Part shown: positions 4,411-50,782 of the stretch, in pieces
Layout of the letters: every line of letters starts with the position of its first letter
Numbering within the stretch: position 1 is the stretch's first letter
Source of the DNA: Candidatus Shapirobacteria bacterium
Lineage (GTDB): Bacteria; Patescibacteriota; Microgenomatia; UBA12405; BS750m-G30
Assembly: GCA_043817235.1 (NCBI GenBank)
Contig: JBDRHA010000011.1
Location: 191,769 to 255,768, forward strand
Reading direction: 5' to 3'
Length of the DNA: 64,000 nucleotides
Position numbers and translations under genes: made by a program
Notes under the pieces: generated by a model
Seen by the model: the letters and a program-made list of their open reading frames with translations, nothing else
What the model was told of the DNA's origin: nothing
The model's database searches: none

Positions 4411-4495
4411 TCTTTGTCATTCCCGACTTGATCGGGAATCTATATAATAATTCCCGATGTTGCAAGGGCAGTCAACTCCCGAGGTTGAAGTTTGC
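4411..4495. repeat. composite intergenic repeat: hairpin GTCATTCCCGACTTGATCGGGAAT followed by 36-nt motif TCCCGATGTTGCAAGGGCAGTCAACTCCCGAGGTTG
   Basis: hairpin is near-identical in structure to 22543-22570; the 36-mer recurs exactly at 37843-37878 and partly at 19055-19085. Confidence 0.7.
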
Positions 4496-4522: not shown

Positions 4523-4837
4523 TTAGCTTCCGAATATGAGCCCGGGATGAGGCAAATTGTCTCTGACGATAATTGTTCCCTGATCTTCCTCTAGATCTTT
4601 AATTGGTTTTGGTTTTTCCCAAGCATGAGATCCTAACTCTTCTGCTGACATCCTCGGCCGTTCTATTAAAAGGTGAGAGTCACTGCCATCATGAGGTGTG
4701 CACCAATTTACTTCTACTCCATCGCCGACCTTTTGGAAGAGGGTAGTATTAGGATGGAGAGAACAACCAATAACTTTTCCCTTAGGATCAAAAATAGCCT
4801 CTCCTCTTAATGATTTTCGTTCTTGTTCAGCTGACAT
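4523..4837 (-). CDS. hypothetical protein (His/Cys-containing, no recognisable domain)
   Basis: 104-aa ORF between two repeat/terminator elements; slightly GC-richer than neighbours. Confidence 0.35.
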   Translation of the reverse strand: MSAEQERKSLRGEAIFDPKGKVIGCSLHPNTTLFQKVGDGVEVNWCTPHDGSDSHLLIERPRMSAEELGSHAWEKPKPIKDLEEDQGTIIVRDNLPHPGLIFGS

Positions 4838-21446: not shown

Positions 21447-22424
21447 TTACTTCTTTTTAATTTTTATTTTCAAAAACCGGATAATTAAAACCAGAGGCAG
21501 CCAGACGACAGCGTAAACGCCGAGCCAAATTCCTAAAGTTCCCAAAGAGCGCAAGGAAGCAATTAAAGATCGAGTTGCTTGCTTGAAAATAGCAGCTGGC
21601 CGCCAGGGTTGAGCCGGGGCATAAGGCAAAGAAAGTTCGTCCGTGGAGAGATAAACGGTCACCTTGGCATTTTGAGCGGTTTTTTCTAGATAATCAGCTC
21701 TTCCTTTCAAATTATCAATTTGCTCTTGAATATAAATTATCTGCCGCTGGACCTCCAAAATATCTGCCACCTCCGTAGCCTGGTTTAAAATCTCCTCAAA
21801 TTTAGCTTTTGTTTTTTCTAGGGTGGCTATTCTCGCTTCAATGTCTATATATTGATCAGTCACATCGTGGCCAGTTAAACTTTCGGAAACCACCCGAACG
21901 CCTAGAGAACGATAACTTTCTAAGGCCTCATTAAGCTTATTTTGGGGGATGCGGACTGTCACGCTCCCGGAATCAACCCCCAAAGGGGAATTAAGCTGGG
22001 AATCAACCAGATAACCACCCAAGCCTTCTGATTTAGCAATAACTGCTTTTTGCTGCTCACGCACATTTTTTACTAGCAAAGAAAGCCAGGAGCTCTGCAC
22101 TATTAAACGGTCTTCTACTTCCGGGGCTGGCGCCGCTTCCGGATATAGCCCCCCACGGCCAATACTCGCTTCTTCCAGAGACTGAGAAAGACCAATTTTA
22201 GATGATTCAAAACCGATTAAGTCAGTATTATATTGAGGCAAAGAAGGCGAACTTTTTTTTAGGAGCAAAGCAAACAAAGCAACAATAAGTGTCAATTGCC
22301 AGTTTTTCTTCAGCCAAAAAGTTATTTTGCCCACCGGGATTAAGATAACAAAAACAAAGTCAGGATGCAAATTGCTAGAGCATGCCGTTGCGGTCCGCCA
22401 GTGGCGGAGTATCGGTCCTGTCAT
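21447..22424 (-). CDS. DUF4349-like protein (membrane-anchored, coiled-coil)
   Basis: N-terminal TM, central coiled coil, C-terminal TM; the N-terminal 30 aa of the ORF overlap a repeat element, so the true start is probably near 22320. Confidence 0.45.
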   Translation of the reverse strand: MTGPILRHWRTATACSSNLHPDFVFVILIPVGKITFWLKKNWQLTLIVALFALLLKKSSPSLPQYNTDLIGFESSKIGLSQSLEEASIGRGGLYPEAAPAPEVEDRLIVQSSWLSLLVKNVREQQKAVIAKSEGLGGYLVDSQLNSPLGVDSGSVTVRIPQNKLNEALESYRSLGVRVVSESLTGHDVTDQYIDIEARIATLEKTKAKFEEILNQATEVADILEVQRQIIYIQEQIDNLKGRADYLEKTAQNAKVTVYLSTDELSLPYAPAQPWRPAAIFKQATRSLIASLRSLGTLGIWLGVYAVVWLPLVLIIRFLKIKIKKK

Positions 22425-22425
22425 C

Positions 22426-22573
22426 CTTTGTCATTGCGAGCCCCCGAAACTTCGGGGGGCGTGGCAATCTTCCCAACGAGATTGCTTCGTCCTCCCGATG
22501 GCTAAAAATAACATCGGGACTCCTCGCAATGACACGGTCTCTGTCATCCCGCACTTGATGCGGGATGACAGAG
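22426..22573. repeat. MITE-like element: ~107-bp unit with terminal inverted repeats TGTCATTGCGAG/CTCGCAATGACA and internal hairpins, followed by a 30-nt hairpin CTGTCATCCCGCACTTGATGCGGGATGACAG
   Basis: inverted termini and three internal stem-loops are readable directly; a truncated copy sits at 35921-35990, a related hairpin at 4411-4441 and a related insertion inside the 23S at 29347-29415. Confidence 0.65.
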
Positions 22574-22614
22574 AAACAGAAGACGAATTACGATATAATA
22601 TAATCAATCAAAAT

Positions 22615-22691
22615 GGGCGGTTAGCTCAGTTGGCTAGAGCGTTTCTTTGACGTAGAAAAGGTCAGAGGTTCAAGTCCTCTACCGCCCACCA
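22615..22691 (+). tRNA. tRNA-Val (anticodon GAC), CCA encoded
   Basis: manual cloverleaf fold: acceptor GGGCGGT/ACCGCCC, D-arm GCTC..GAGC, anticodon stem TTTCT/AGAAA with loop TTGACGT, T-arm AGAGG TTCAAGT CCTCT; 74 nt plus CCA. Confidence 0.85.
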
Positions 22692-22695
22692 AATA

Positions 22696-23187
22696 TTATT
22701 TTTCCAAAACAATTGGCTCGTCAGTAGGCTCTAAGCGCTTGCCGTTAATTATCACCCAGACCACGCCCCCTTTTGATCCAATATCGGAAACCAAAAAAGA
22801 ATGTTCTTTGGTTTCTTCATTACTAAAGGGAAAAACAGAAAACATTTTTTGACTTTCCGAATCTTGGCATTCTAAACTAGCAAAGACTTGGTTGTTTGTT
22901 TTAAAAGTTACCAAATATTGCCCTTTAATTAAGGGCTTGATCTTTAAGCTCATAATCTCTGTTTCGTTAACTGCCTGGGAAAGCCAATTCTTGGGAGTAA
23001 AAACCTGACTGCCGGCGGCTAATAAAGAAAAACCTACTAACAAAAGAATAACTAACTTGCCCTTTTTTTCTTGCCAATCTTTGCCGCTGCCTACACCAAA
23101 AAGTAAAACCATTATAGCAGCGCTTACTAGCGCAAAAAGAAGAAGAAACAAAAAAATCTTAAACCAAAAACTAGATATTATTTCCAT
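22696..23187 (-). CDS. hypothetical signal-anchored protein
   Basis: 163 aa, N-terminal TM helix, no recognisable motif. Confidence 0.35.
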   Translation of the reverse strand: MEIISSFWFKIFLFLLLFALVSAAIMVLLFGVGSGKDWQEKKGKLVILLLVGFSLLAAGSQVFTPKNWLSQAVNETEIMSLKIKPLIKGQYLVTFKTNNQVFASLECQDSESQKMFSVFPFSNEETKEHSFLVSDIGSKGGVVWVIINGKRLEPTDEPIVLEK

Positions 23188-26725: not shown

Positions 26726-27015
26726 AATTCATATTTCTCCTTTCAATATATTATTGACCAAAAAATCAGATTGCTGAGTGTTTAAAGAAAAATCTTGTTC
26801 GGTTTTTAGGTACAGCTTGGCTAAAACCATTGCTGGTCTTACACCGGCTGCCCATACCCAGTAGTCTCCTGGGAACCTAATAATGATTCCTTATCTTGGG
26901 GTGGGCTTCCCGCTTCAGATGCTTTCAGCGGTTATCCTTTGGAAACATAGCTACCCGGCAATGCTCTTGACAGAACAACCGGTACACCAGAGGTTTCCCC
27001 AACTAGGTCCTCTCG

Positions 27016-27772
27016 TCAACGATCCTCCCATTGCTGGGAGGGTTAGACTATATCTTCATCCCCCGAATACTCGGGGGAGCTTGCCTTATTATGGAGGCTT
27101 TAATTTGCTTTATTTATTAAAGATAAAACACATCCTCCATCTCGTCCCGCAGCTGCGGGACTCAGTCGTTAAAGGGGTATAAGACCTCTTTTGAGAAACT
27201 CCTTGCGAACGTATTCGCAATTATATTTCTTTTTGACAGTTGCATAATTTATCGAAGACAATCTATCTGAAAGTTGACAAACTTCCAGAAATTTCTTCGG
27301 CTTTGGTTTTTTTTGCATAATTGAAATTGCCCTAAGCATTATTTCAACCTGCTTTCTCTTAAAAATGATATAAGGGGTCAACTCTTTAAGGGTTGACCCA
27401 ACAGCTTTGTAGCCTTCAATTCTCAGCTCGGTAATATGATCTTTTCTTCTAGAAAGATAACCAATTCCCAGTTTCTTTCTGATCCAAATAAGACCTTTTT
27501 CGTGCCGGGTATCTTGATAAAAACATATTACGGTTTTTACCCGAAAGCCAAAGCTTACCACCTTACGTGGCTTTAACTGAAGCATAATACTTCCGTCGCC
27601 ATATAAAAAACCAGCAATATATGCTTTTTCTTTTCCTGTCATTGTCAAAAAGTCTTTAACCTTCCCTTGGTATTACCCTCTAAGTCACAAGGACCAACGA
27701 GTTTAATTTTAAAGGGCTTCACCAATTTTAGCAAGTGTGACCTTGGCAATTACTTACCAAGGCAGCATTTAT
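27016..27772 (-). mobile_element. self-splicing (group I-like) intron in 23S rRNA carrying a homing endonuclease ORF
   Basis: exon sequence ...CTACAGT | ACGAGAGGACC... is contiguous in E. coli (AGU/ACGAGAGGACC, approx position 2656/2657) but separated here by ~757 nt; boundaries approximate. Confidence 0.75.
27169..27648 (-). CDS. LAGLIDADG family homing endonuclease (intron-encoded)
   Basis: 159 aa; classic LAGLIDADG motif YIAGFLYGDGSI near the N-terminus; lies entirely within the 23S interruption. Confidence 0.85.
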   Translation of the reverse strand: MTMTGKEKAYIAGFLYGDGSIMLQLKPRKVVSFGFRVKTVICFYQDTRHEKGLIWIRKKLGIGYLSRRKDHITELRIEGYKAVGSTLKELTPYIIFKRKQVEIMLRAISIMQKKPKPKKFLEVCQLSDRLSSINYATVKKKYNCEYVRKEFLKRGLIPL

Positions 27773-30760
27773 CTACTGTAGTCAGCTCCCCTCAAGAATC
27801 AGCGGTTACTGCGGATAGAGACCGAGCTGTCTTACGACGCTCTGAACCCAACTAATGCGGCGCTTTAATGGGCGAACAGACCAACCCTTGGCCACTTCTT
27901 CATGGCCAGGATGCGCCAAGTCGACATCGAGGTGCCGAACCGGGCCGTCTATGTGGACTATCGGGCCCGACCAGCCTGTTATCCCCGGGGTAATTTTTAT
28001 CCGTTAAGCCCCATGTTTAACCATCCAAGCATGGGGGATCACTAAGACCTGCTTTCGCATCTCCTCGCCTTGACGGCGGGTGGTATCACCTTAAACTTTT
28101 CCAGTTCAAATGAGTGAAAAAATAAAAGGATTAACCAGCTCGACTTGTAAGTCTCGCAGTTAGGCTAGCTTTTGGCTTTGTCCTTACGGCTCGGTTTCCA
28201 TCCGAGCTAAGCTAACCTTTGTACGCTCGCGTTACCTTTTAGCAAGCGGCTGCCCCAGCCAAACTGACCACCAAACACTGTTCCCGTCCGAGTGTGCATC
28301 GGACTCAGGTAAGACGTAAACTTGATAAAGGGTGGTATTCCACTGGTGGTCCGACGTAAAGTCGGACCTCCCACCTATTCTCGACAGTTACCAAATTCTT
28401 GTCAATGTTAAGTTTCAGTAAAACTCCACGGGGTCTTTTTGTCCTGCAGTAACTAACCGGCATCTTCACCGGTATTTCAATTTCGCCGGATAAAGGGTCG
28501 AGACAGTTGCTCGGTCGTGAAGCCTTTCATACTGGTCTGAACTTACCAGACAATGGACTTCGCTACCTTTGGATCCTTAGAGTTAGGACCGTCGTTCACC
28601 GGGGCTTCGGTTTGAGGCAGTCCAAGTAAACTTGGATACCCCGCTCCTTGACCTTCCGGCACCGGACAGGCTTCAGCCCCTATACTTCCCCTTACGGGTT
28701 TGCAGAGACCTGTGTTTTTGCTAAACAGTCGCCGAGCAATCTTTCGCTGCGTCCCGCCCAAAGGCGGGAAAGGCATCTCCCTAAGTTACGCCTAGCTTTT
28801 TTGCCGAGTTCCTTGACCCTCCTTCTTCCGATCGTTTTAGTTTACTCAACTTGTCCACCTGTGTCGGTTTTCGGTACGAATATTATTTTTTCTCCCAACG
28901 AAGCTTTTCTTGGTATCTGAACCCAGCGGGATTTCCCAAAACAAGTTTGGGATTCCGGCAAGTCTCACTTAAAACGAAATGGCGGATTTGCCTACCACTT
29001 CTGGCTCAACTAACCGATGCGGCAATTTCACTCACCACACCCCACCTCTCCTGATACGTCCCTCCCTTGGTTATAACGAAAAAATAACAGGGCTGGAATA
29101 TTAACCAGCTGTCCATCCACTACTCCCGACGTAACGTCGGGACTTATGTTAGGATCGCCTAACCCTCAGACGACAAACGTTGCTGAGGAAACCTTGGACA
29201 TTCAACGGTCCAGTTTCTCACTGGACTTACGCTACTCATGCCGGCATTCTCGCTCCCGCCAACTCCACTCCGATTCACATCGGAACTTCACTGTAAGCGG
29301 GACGCTCCCCTACCAACCTCGCCTCCTGGGCAAGAAAATCCTAATTTCTAACCCTTTGTCATCCTGAGCATAGCCGAAGGATCTTTTACTCCCAAAGATT
29401 CCTCGACTTCGCTCGGAATGACAAGGCACAATATTATTTAGAATTTCCCTGTCCAAGAGACAAGATTCTCCGTTGTCGGTGGCCTGCTTTAGCCTCGGTA
29501 AATTTTCGGCGCAGCCTATCCATATCGACCAGTGAGCTGTTACGCTTTCTTTAAAGGGTGGCTGCCTCTAAGCCAACCTCCTGGCTGTCTAGGATCGACT
29601 ACCTCCTTCCCCACTTAGCAAGACACTTAGAGACCTTAAACGGGAGTCTGGGTTGTTTCCCTTTCGCCCAACCAGCTTAGCCCGGCTGGACTGACTGCCT
29701 GATTAATTTACCTGGTATTCGGAGTTTGGTTGAACACCGGAGATTGCTCCCCAGATGCTCATCCAGTCGCTCTACCCCCAAGCAAAACAATATCAGGCGC
29801 TATACCAATATATATTTCGGGGAGAACCAGCTATTTCCGAGTTCGATAAGCATATTACCTCTAACCACAGGTCATCCAAAGAGTTTGCAGCCTCAACTGG
29901 TGCGGGCCTCCGGTCGACTTTCATCGACCTTCACCCTGCCCATGGTTAGCTCACTCGGTTTCGGGTATTCCGCCAGCCGCTAAACGCCTTATTCAGACTC
30001 GGTTTCCCTACGCCTTCCCCCGCAACTGCGAGGTTAAACTTGCGACTAAGACGAAAACTCGCCGGCTCATTCTTCAATAGGCACGACATCAGTCCGACGT
30101 AACGTCGGACCTCTGTCTGTTTGTTAGCAAATAGTTTCAGGTTCTATTTCACTCCCCTCCCGGGGTTCTTTTCACCTTTCCCTCACGGTAATATACGCTA
30201 TCGGTCAGCAAGAGTATTTAGCCTTTCCGGATGGCCCCGGAAGATTCCCACGAAGTTTTGCGTGTTCCGTGGTACTCAGGTGCTCTGGCTCAAACTTAAT
30301 CAAATTTCACCTACAGGGCTTTCACCTTCTTTGGCAAGCCATTTCCAGGCTTTTTGGCTATTTTTTCAGCTCAAGACTATCAGAGTCCTACAACCCCCCG
30401 ACGTTACGTCGGGGTTTGGGCTACTCCCTTTTCGCTCACCGCTACTAAGGGAATTATGGTTATTTTCTTTTCCTCTGGGTACTAAGATGTTTCAGTTCCC
30501 CAGGTTATCCCCCCGCAAATGCGGGGTTTCCGAAATTAACTTCGGAAGGGTTGCCCCATTCGGAAACCGCCGGATCATAGGTTGCAGACACCTACCCGAC
30601 GAGTATCGCCGTCTGCCGCGTCCTTCTTCGACTCTTACCGCCAAGGCATCCACTATTTGCCTTACTACAAGATTTTTTCTTTAATATCAACAATCTGATT
30701 CTTTAGTCAATTACTTTCTAATAAGTTGTCAAGGTGCAGCCTGCCTCACCGGCAGGTGGG

Positions 30761-35920: not shown

Positions 35921-35990
35921 TTGTGTCGTTTGTCATTGAGAAATTTTTTGTCATTGCGACCCCGCAGCGGCGGGGGAAGCAATCCCGATG
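35921..35990. repeat. truncated copy of the TTTGTCATTGCGA element (TTTGTCATTGAGA + TTTGTCATTGCGACCCCGCAGCGGCGGGGGAAGCAATCCCGATGG)
   Basis: shares left terminus, GC hairpin, GCAATC and CCCGATGG blocks with 22426-22500. Confidence 0.55.
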
Positions 35991-36132: not shown

Positions 36133-36522
36133 TTAATAATTTTGCGCCCGTGGATATTGTTGATCGCGATAGGTTCCACGACAGAGCTTAAACCAGATTG
36201 GGCAATACCGAAAATTAACTTTGGTTTCTTTTTTTGTATCAAAGCACATGCCCTCAGATACATGACCCATCATTTTTTTTGACTCAAGATTAATTACAAA
36301 TAGCGCCTGTTTGCCTTCTACCTCTCGCGGATTATCTCTTTCCTTTTTCATACCCACAATAATATTTCTTTTATGGTCGCCAAAATCAACAACTAGCTTG
36401 ACCAATTTATCCGACTCGGGAATATCTTCAACTTTTTCAATGGTACCAACTCGAATATCAACCTTATCTAGAACCTCGTAACCTATGACTGATTTTATTG
36501 GCGCTGGAGTTACTTTACCCAT
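36133..36522 (-). CDS. tRNA-binding domain protein (CsaA/Trbp111/EMAP-like OB fold)
   Basis: IRVGTIEKVEDIPESDKLVKLVVDFGD...IIVGMKK matches the MetRS C-terminal-like tRNA-binding domain; the C-terminal ~25 aa run into a repeat and may not be real. Confidence 0.6.
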   Translation of the reverse strand: MGKVTPAPIKSVIGYEVLDKVDIRVGTIEKVEDIPESDKLVKLVVDFGDHKRNIIVGMKKERDNPREVEGKQALFVINLESKKMMGHVSEGMCFDTKKETKVNFRYCPIWFKLCRGTYRDQQYPRAQNY

Positions 36523-49026: not shown

Positions 49027-49053
49027 TAGATTATTTTATCATGGCAAAAAAAG

Positions 49054-49127
49054 TGGACGCGCCAGGACTCGAACCTGGGACCTCTTGCTCATAAGGCAAG
49101 CGCTCTCACCGACTGAGCTACGCGTCC
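49054..49127 (-). tRNA. tRNA with anticodon TAT (UAU; tRNA-Ile reading AUA), no encoded CCA
   Basis: manual fold: acceptor GGACGCG/CGCGTCC, D-arm GCTC..GAGC, anticodon stem CTTGC/GCAAG with loop CTTATGA, T-arm CCAGG TTCGAGT CCTGG; 74 nt. Confidence 0.7.

Positions 49128-49314: not shown

Positions 49315-50782
<1,468 letters not shown>

Follow-up and report, generated by a model that had tools for sequence, protein, structure and literature searches.

Hairpin doublets tagged with (C/T)GTC in a Candidatus Shapirobacteria contig: probable single-stranded DNA targets of an Ssn-type nuclease

CGTC-tagged repetitive extragenic palindromes (REPs) are short DNA hairpins preceded by an unpaired four-base tag. 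The tag is CGTC and often TGTC, and CCTC tags also occur. Stems measure 8-9 bp and nearly always open with complementary A and T; loops are 4-5 nt long, and a 3-nt tail with the consensus CCA follows (PMC3733652). They are mostly found as head-to-head dimers with the tags outside, both as homodimers and as heterodimers, and they have no linked Y1 transposase; the partner enzyme was left unknown (PMC3733652). Members include dRS3 of Neisseria and RPE-4 and RPE-6 of Rickettsia, and the phyla listed are Proteobacteria, Chlorobi, Bacteroidetes, Spirochaetes and Thermotogae (PMC3733652). The present analysis concerns a hairpin element of similar design at positions 22429-22534 of a 64,000-nt stretch of contig JBDRHA010000011.1 (positions 191,769 to 255,768), from a Candidatus Shapirobacteria bacterium. 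The whole stretch is called the window below.

Of the sequence words searched in the literature, only GTCATTCCCGCG pointed to the Ssn nuclease system. Neisseria dRS3 forms part of NTS, a 28-nt hairpin (CGTCATTCCCGCGMAVGCGGGAATCYRG), and NTS-like Ssn-related motifs (SRMs) flank genes for small single-domain GIY-YIG proteins (cd10448); SRMs can reach hundreds of copies and are often clustered (PMC11893778). The enzyme SsnA binds and cuts the motif as single-stranded DNA (ssDNA) only, not as double-stranded DNA, RNA or the reverse strand. Binding depends above all on the C that immediately follows the palindrome, and cleavage, a few nucleotides upstream, above all on the 3 nt that precede it. Identity of the loop is irrelevant; it can be dispensed with or extended (PMC11893778). 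In Neisseria the Ssn system modulates transformation, and dRS3 is also the target of a phage recombinase (PMC11893778).

The element in the window is probably a head-to-head doublet of (C/T)GTC-tagged ssDNA hairpins of the CGTC-REP/SRM class, which would be targeted by an Ssn-type nuclease. Four features are fixed in each half-unit: an unpaired (C/T)GTC, a stem starting with A-T and T-A pairs, a free loop, and a C after the stem. The element had been described, from the sequence alone, as a 22426-22532 unit with 12-bp terminal inverted repeats and three internal stem-loops, directly followed by a second hairpin. All of these structures are present, but the boundaries are 22429-22534 (106 nt). 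The outer ends, TGTCATTGCGAG (22429-22440) and CTCGCAATGACA (22523-22534), are complementary at 12 of 12 positions. Between them lie the stem-loops CCCCCGAA/TTCGGGGG (22441-22458), GCAATCT/AGATTGC (22464-22485) and TCCCGATG/CATCGGGA (22493-22519).

These parts resolve into two ATTGC-type half-units, delimited by a half-unit finder and, on the left, by the sequence itself. The left half-unit (22429-22469, plus strand) consists of the TGTC tag (22429-22432), the stem arm ATTGC (22433-22437), GA, an inner hairpin (22440-22460), GTG, the stem arm GCAAT (22464-22468) and a C (22469). The right half-unit (22480-22534) is on the minus strand, where it reads TGTC-ATTGC-GAGGAG, the inner hairpin TCCCGATG..CATCGGGA and GGACGAA-GCAAT-C. 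Both have a 5-bp stem, with structured loops of 26 and 40 nt. The spacer that separates them (22470-22479) is the loop of the inner stem GCAATCT/AGATTGC; its sequence and length differ among family members. The second hairpin (22538-22574) is a simple unit and a full palindrome, with the tag on both strands: TGTC-ATCCCGCA-CTTGA-TGCGGGAT-GACA. Its 16-nt arms are perfect and its loop is 5 nt. Folded as ssDNA, positions 22427-22576 form a four-way junction (the doublet) and the second hairpin, with a predicted energy of -55.4 kcal/mol; dinucleotide shuffles give -19.9 +/- 2.7 (z = -13).

A direct repeat of 14/15 nt, CGGTC(T)CTGTCATCC, brackets the doublet. The left copy (CGGTCCTGTCATCC) is at 22413-22426 and the right copy (CGGTCTCTGTCATCC) at 22535-22549, both on the plus strand. 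The right copy overlaps the start of the simple unit, and the repeat corresponds to the 5' flank, the TGTC tag and the first stem bases of that unit; CTGTCATCC of the left copy recurs at 22541-22549. Flanking direct repeats had been proposed as a check on the element. They exist here as part of a neighbouring simple unit, and no consistent duplication was found. The arrangement suggests insertion into, or recombination between, pre-existing units.

Recurrence within the window is weak. The terminal 13-mer gives six matches with at most two mismatches, weakly above the 2.1 expected by chance, and a self-BLAST of the window returned nothing longer than recurrence on the scale of this 13-mer. The case for a family is therefore made with data from outside. 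In IMG/VR, 32 loci have the two ends at a spacing of 60-90 nt, and a scan for the left end plus GCAATC plus GATTGC found at least 120. Hundreds of external copies establish the family, and its relatives run to thousands on environmental contigs of viral or prophage-like type. The 5' half of the common module consists of TGTCATTGCGAG, a short spacer or a hairpin whose sequence is arbitrary, CG(AA/TG)GCAATC(T/C)C and a variable loop; the 3' half consists of GAGATTGC(TT/CA)CG, a spacer or hairpin, and C(T)CTCGCAATGACA. The external loci, which carry portal and capsid genes, are of phage or prophage-like type; the elements occupy positions between genes. Half-units also occur solo, and single terminal boxes occur in tandem arrays. 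BLAST of the canonical doublet against PLSDB matched only Halomonas, Methylosinus and Methylocystis plasmids, and against GenBank phages it gave two partial matches only. Literature searches by sequence word found ATTGC termini and GAGCGAAGCGAAG loops only in primers.

The tandem arrays contain the terminal box only (..CTCGCAATGACA), with periods of 24-26 or 39 nt, and stand beside full units. They were seen in L032 (2179-2212, 8108-8141 and 8836-8869), L050 (6152-6209), L020 (4628-4689) and L082 (68-194), where L numbers denote fetched loci. Slippage and repeated nick-repair are possible origins.

Compensatory base changes, named beforehand as a test of the family, are clear in the external stem variants. 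The cores of the first and second box change jointly: ATTGC pairs with GCAAT, ATTCT with AGAAT and ATCCT with AGGAT. An unbiased scan with GTCATNHNGAGCGNAGCGA, in which the 3' arm was unspecified and the ATTGC type excluded, showed that the stem arms covary strongly in eight or more stem variants. Exact complementarity of the 3' arm holds in 36 of 43 cases for ATTCT, 25 of 38 for ATCCT, 9 of 10 for ATCCC, 8 of 8 for ATTCC, 4 of 4 for ATGCT and 2 of 2 for ATACT; wrong-complement matches make up 6 of 2772 cross-comparisons. In alignment A1 (112 sequences) there are 69 double-change cells against 20.4 +/- 7.3 after shuffling, and none of 500 shuffles was as high. Sliding the partner by 1-3 columns lowers pairing from 86% to 21-52%. 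The outer two pairs in A1, with AT specified on the 5' side and no constraint on the 3' side, are A-U in 77/112 and U-A in 89/112, counts that include non-family chance matches. Only nine single-mismatch units bear on an asymmetry between G-T and A-C, a comparison that would separate selection on one strand from selection on both.

Perfect units of the unbiased set have T (56), C (13), A (1) or G (0) before GTC. A larger collection of 908 half-units in 2.3 Mb, which is pattern-ascertained and comes mostly from 'viral' contigs, has a C directly after the stem in 756 (83%). Observed tails are CTC, CTG, CTT, CCC and CTA, with CCA in some units from relatives in the candidate phyla radiation (CPR). 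Doublets mostly have their tags outward (189, of which 148 are homodimers and 41 heterodimers); tags point inward in 27, and 33 are tandem. Heterodimers pair perfectly inside each half and not between halves, which identifies the half-unit hairpin, rather than a long stem of terminal inverted repeats, as the conserved structure.

The loop differs between forms of the half-unit. In the short form it reads GA-GCGNAGC-GA, where N can be any base (A 25, C 23, G 16, T 6). GCGNAGC and GCGNNAGC are the consensus of 'mini-hairpin DNA', which is extraordinarily stable: the melting temperature is 76.5 °C as DNA, and the RNA counterpart r(GCGAAAGC) melts at 39 °C (PMC13037366). Such mini-hairpins are found at ssDNA priming origins and in the hairpin promoters of phage N4, and they exclude single-stranded DNA-binding protein (PMC13037366). 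Among distinct ATTGC-type loops, which range from 7 to 49 nt, 225 of 248 start with GA, and many of the long ones hold a hairpin of arbitrary sequence. An ATTGC half-unit would thus comprise an outer 5-bp stem, tandem G-A pairs, and then either a mini-hairpin or a longer nested hairpin. The GCGNAGC consensus supports structure at the DNA level.

A profile search of all open reading frames (ORFs) of the fetched loci found a 98-aa single-domain GIY-YIG gene in L023/L290 (PF01541, E = 9.5e-15). It has ATTGC-type doublets and half-units on both sides, and its product is 100% identical to a Flavobacterium beibuense protein. A further 36 loci were fetched by homologue alignment of this gene, independently of any GTCAT pattern. 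Tagged hairpins lie within 300 nt of the GIY-YIG gene in 17 of the 36, and their density is 2.34 per kb near the gene and 0.15 per kb elsewhere. Nearly all of the tagged hairpins in these loci start with AT and a few with AC. Exact published NTS sequences are present in five of the loci, where the genes are 42-47% identical to the Flavobacterium protein. Gene and repeat are therefore associated in other genomes, and this includes the ATTGC type.

One viral contig of low GC (36%) carries a 97-aa GIY-YIG gene followed by an AT-rich cluster of simple units, e.g. CGTCATTCCGAACTTGGTTCGGAATCTT (L295, 2460-2980). These units closely resemble those of Microgenomates loci. Many close homologues of the small GIY-YIG proteins (P0122-P0360) are on public contigs of 0.5-1 kb; such short contigs are expected if the gene is multi-copy or flanked by assembly-breaking repeats.

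In comparison with the CGTC-tagged REPs of Di Nocera (2013), the tag, the A/T stem start, the tail C and the head-to-head predominance are all shared. The simple units at 4415-4442 and 22542-22570 fit that class exactly, with an 8-bp stem and the 5-nt loop CTTGA. Patescibacteria are not among the phyla listed for it (PMC3733652). The units also share with SRM/NTS a GTC 5' of an AT-starting palindrome and a C 3' of it. Tag and trailing C are the very positions reported as critical for SsnA (PMC11893778). A free, extendable loop and a number of copies in the hundreds, often in clusters, are likewise shared. The units differ from SRMs in stem and loop: the outer stem is 5 bp, and tandem G-A pairs with a GCGNAGC mini-hairpin, or a nested variable hairpin, take the place of a loop of 3-5 nt. 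CPR hosts and copies on viral contigs are absent from the main text of the SRM paper (PMC11893778). Neither published definition covers the sub-type whose stem is 5 bp and whose loop is long and structured.

Action of an Ssn-type enzyme on these copies in this organism is suggested by the conserved determinants and by the gene association in other genomes. The tagged strand would fold into a hairpin whenever the DNA is single-stranded, for instance while it is replicated or taken up, or in phage DNA metabolism. An Ssn-family nuclease, small and with GIY-YIG as its single domain, would then bind the stem and the following C, and would nick a few nucleotides 5' of the tag. Nuclease genes flanked by repeats may behave much like a minimal insertion sequence, with the copies in the window as non-autonomous satellites. 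Copies may be gained and lost by recombination that nicking stimulates, or by copying.

Several points weigh against this assignment. The mechanism of copying is conjecture. Neither the 64-kb window nor about 490 kb of loci from CPR relatives yielded a GIY-YIG ORF, so the partner enzyme is only presumed in this lineage. The ATTGC half-units have a 5-bp stem and structured loops of 12-49 nt, unlike the CGTC-tagged REPs. The published SRM pattern, HGTCWYN(0-2)YYVSBRHN(0-5)WNVSBRGN(0-2)RNCYNB, matches no unit of the window on either strand; it also misses the ATTGC, ATTCT and ATCCT families, whereas canonical NTS matches. Finally, the comparison of 908 half-units with 147 and 119 in controls is partly circular because the set was ascertained by pattern.

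Gains and losses are visible among related contigs. An 82-nt doublet is present in L139 and cleanly absent from L074, L010 carries a 48-nt solo half-unit that L032 lacks, and accretion beside existing units occurs in related contigs. No consistent target-site duplication accompanies the gains, and the L139/L074 case can be read as flanked by TTATTC. In the closest relatives (S1 77-82% identical) gene order differs at the main locus, so presence and absence were compared per intergenic region only. Shapirobacteria relatives differ at three orthologous sites. In the closest of them (S1 79% identical), three units lie upstream of tRNA-Ala/23S, a region empty of units in the window; the site upstream of the PBP gene is empty in that relative and holds one unit in the window. 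Two assemblies of this relative differ by one single-nucleotide polymorphism in a unit and by no insertion. Three other Shapirobacteria contig sets have no units in 77 kb.

Synteny breaks at the element itself (22334-22700, compared with 14889-16735 of L162 and 17902-18773 of L287). In the relatives an AP-endonuclease gene, together with NIF3 in L162, lies upstream of the DUF4349 gene. In the window the doublet stands in their place, between DUF4349 and tRNA-Val, whose proximity had been noted from the sequence; the repeat cluster is bordered by tRNA-Val and by a membrane ORF of 163 aa. GTDB relatives, with DUF4349 proteins at most 58% identical, have no tRNA-Val synteny.

The sequence-only reading had termed the family MITE-like, i.e. 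similar to miniature inverted-repeat transposable elements. This is apt in so far as the repeats are non-coding, hairpin-rich and non-autonomous with conserved termini. A usual MITE, by which is meant an internally deleted DDE-transposase insertion sequence whose 12-bp terminal inverted repeats serve for cut-and-paste movement, is the least probable of the explanations and scarcely credible. The perfect 12-bp ends start with TG and end with CA, the length is about 100 nt, the site is intergenic, and the TTATTC on both sides of the L139 gain would fit such an element. However, these ends are tags plus outer stem arms, which also occur singly, in tandem arrays and in heterodimers, and covariation runs within halves and not between ends. 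A search for a parent insertion sequence gave 20 long end pairs, which enclose phage structural genes and no transposases; other gains lack a duplication, and the 14/15-nt repeat belongs to the neighbouring unit. Bertels and Rainey reportedly described REPINs in 2011 as GTAG-tagged REP doublets linked to RAYT. A REPIN-like doublet mobilised in trans by an HUH/Y1 transposase (RAYT or an IS200/IS605-type TnpA) is improbable here. Much of the design does agree: two inverted hairpins within a larger hairpin, singlets (decayed copies in REPINs), a 4-nt tag beside a variable stem, no target duplication, and recognition based on ssDNA (REP and REPIN features: PMC3733652). Two RAYT-like ORFs were also found in 2.6 Mb of fetched loci (L220 and L247). 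Yet the tag is (C/T)GTC, and TGTC in the window, instead of GTAG; neither ORF is flanked by units; and no Y1 transposase ORF was detected in the window or the CPR loci (phmmer/jackhmmer with E. coli RayT). The gene family associated with the repeats is GIY-YIG, whose members are flanked by units here, and no Y1 gene flanked by CGTC repeats was reported in PMC3733652.

An element that works as RNA, be it a small RNA (sRNA), a terminator or an element for processing or stability, has only a slim chance of being correct. Stem covariation is strong, one copy lies in the 23S rRNA at the tip of a long helix and is certainly transcribed, and REPs in other bacteria are mainly downstream of genes and can stabilise mRNA (PMC3733652). 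Against this, the main copy lies 5' of both genes of a divergent pair, units are found in either orientation and as symmetric doublets, no U-tract follows them, the GNA triloop is weak as RNA, and SsnA does not bind the RNA form. Rfam gave no match at the gathering threshold for 22380-22620, and at E up to 10 only chance-level matches (E from 0.065); the sRNA family suggested from the sequence is not favoured. It is very improbable that the hairpins are ssDNA signals of another kind, such as priming sites, hairpin promoters, or integration targets of IS110-type elements or filamentous phages. GCGNAGC does occur at priming origins and N4 promoters (PMC13037366), dRS3 is a target of a phage recombinase (PMC11893778), and many copies here are viral or prophage-like. 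No such gene association was seen in these loci, though, and the copies are scattered between structural genes in a manner that is not origin-like; tag and trailing C are conserved as Ssn recognition requires. The classical MITE, RAYT-REPIN and sRNA readings are thus less well supported than a doublet of tagged hairpins targeted by an Ssn-type nuclease.

The two RAYT-like (HUH/Y1) ORFs are related to each other (L220 1170-1817 and L247 1410-2165, both on the minus strand). A palindrome, TGTCATGAT(A/T)NGTGACA, lies in the 5' portion of each frame, at the start codon in the case of L220.

The window holds about eight half-units in total, as well as tag remnants, in agreement with the several copies claimed earlier. 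The finder places them at 4416 (+), 22430 (+), 22533 (-), 22543 (palindromic), 29358 (+), 29422 (-) and 35950 (+). Every unit has the TGTC tag and a stem of the form AT...AT. The hairpin said to recur at 4415 is a simple unit on the plus strand (4415-4442), TGTC-ATTCCCGA-CTTGA-TCGGGAAT-CTA, identified by the finder. A truncated partner arm (ATTCCCGA, 4450-4457) lies 10 nt downstream, and the unit is bordered by an HlyD-like gene (5' end) and a 104-aa ORF (3' end). A left-end copy with a duplicated terminus had also been proposed; it corresponds to a degenerate extra terminal box (TTTGTCATTGAGA, 35929-35941, plus strand) followed by a solo ATTGC-type half-unit found by the finder (35949-35984, plus strand), TGTC-ATTGC-GA-[CCCCGC AGCG GCGGGG]-GAA-GCAAT-C. 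The inner hairpin of this half-unit has the same position as the one at 22440-22460 and a different sequence. The window has three such inner hairpins: GCCCCCGAAACTTCGGGGGGC, TCCCGATG..CATCGGGA and CCCCGCAGCGGCGGGG. The 35950 copy is downstream, not upstream as had been stated, of the tRNA-binding-domain gene (36133-36522, minus strand), and it is upstream of the PBP gene.

The remaining doublet, which the sequence-only reading missed, is within the 23S rRNA gene (27773-30671). It is a heterodimer in head-to-head arrangement (29357-29423, half-unit finder) with loops of the GAGCNNAGNCGA type; it joins an ATCCT/AGGAT half-unit (plus strand) to an ATTCC/GGAAT half-unit (minus strand). The doublet sits at the tip of a 132-nt insertion on the minus strand (29323-29454), which alignment to RF02541 with cmscan assigns to the terminal loop of helix 45, after model position 1218 and before 1219. 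As RNA, the insertion folds into one long hairpin that prolongs helix 45 (z = -7.3). Intervening sequences in helix 45 occur in the 23S rRNA of Salmonella, Leptospira, Campylobacter and other bacteria. The insertion in the window is one of these, as it replaces the terminal loop and extends the helix as a single long hairpin. It differs in carrying at its tip a doublet of tagged hairpins from the repeat family that also includes the intergenic copies, and to our knowledge no such doublet has been reported at the tip of a helix-45 intervening sequence. Among the four relatives compared, L283 has no insertion at this site; L162 and L287 have a different one of about 150 nt, whose base resembles that in the window and whose tip has no units.

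The 23S gene of L162 (6412-9872, 3461 nt) has four more insertions of 34-226 nt relative to the gene in the window, and a 174-aa ORF was called within it. In the window, an ORF resembling a LAGLIDADG endonuclease (27169-27648, minus strand) lies just 3' of the 23S gene. The 16S gene (49315-50780) is about 19 kb from the 23S gene and on the opposite strand, and a tRNA-Ile with anticodon TAT (49053-49127) adjoins it. No 5S rRNA was detected within the 64-kb window.

The main doublet is intergenic, upstream of two divergent genes; it had been placed inside the 5' end of the DUF4349 ORF. That ORF (325 aa, 21447-22424, minus strand) opens with an ATG at 22424 which stems from a GTCAT tag remnant, the CAT being that of the left direct repeat. 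The homologue of a relative begins at residue 31 of the window protein, so the GTG at 22334 is the likely start, about 95 nt from the doublet. DUF4349 relatives belong to Microgenomates. The ATG within GTCAT thus produces a spurious N-terminal extension of 30 aa. A spurious 107-aa ORF on the plus strand (22327-22650) reads ...CHCEPPKLRGAWQSSQRDCFV...PRND..., and phage ORFs in L050, L125 and other loci run into units and end in ...SPSAPRND. Small unannotated ORFs adjoining units (4523-4837 and 26883-27182) have no GIY-YIG features.

A broader proposal can be made, but it is rather doubtful. Hairpins with GCGNAGC or nested loops might form a very large undescribed branch of Ssn targets that extends across Patescibacteria, Bacteroidota, Proteobacteria and phages. 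In reduced CPR genomes without ssn they would be orphans, served by a phage-borne or other enzyme or put to use by the host, and they might colonise the loop of helix 45 and thereby give rise to intervening sequences. If true, rRNA fragmentation and, in organisms that depend on DNA uptake, the control of incoming ssDNA would be tied to a selfish ssDNA-hairpin element.

The units explain recurrent spurious ORFs (peptides such as ...DCFV...PRND and VIASE...), false starts and broken metagenome assemblies. The copy in helix 45 is a concrete example of how rRNA intervening sequences may arise. The ATTGC, ATTCT and ATCCT families, with their varied stems, are natural candidate substrates for ssDNA-specific nucleases of biotechnological interest. 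If the element is indeed a doublet of Ssn-targeted hairpins, surveys that use the published SRM pattern would undercount the system because this hairpin type is structurally distinct. The partnership of Ssn nuclease and SRM repeat described in 2025 would then reach a candidate-phylum bacterium and many environmental viral contigs.

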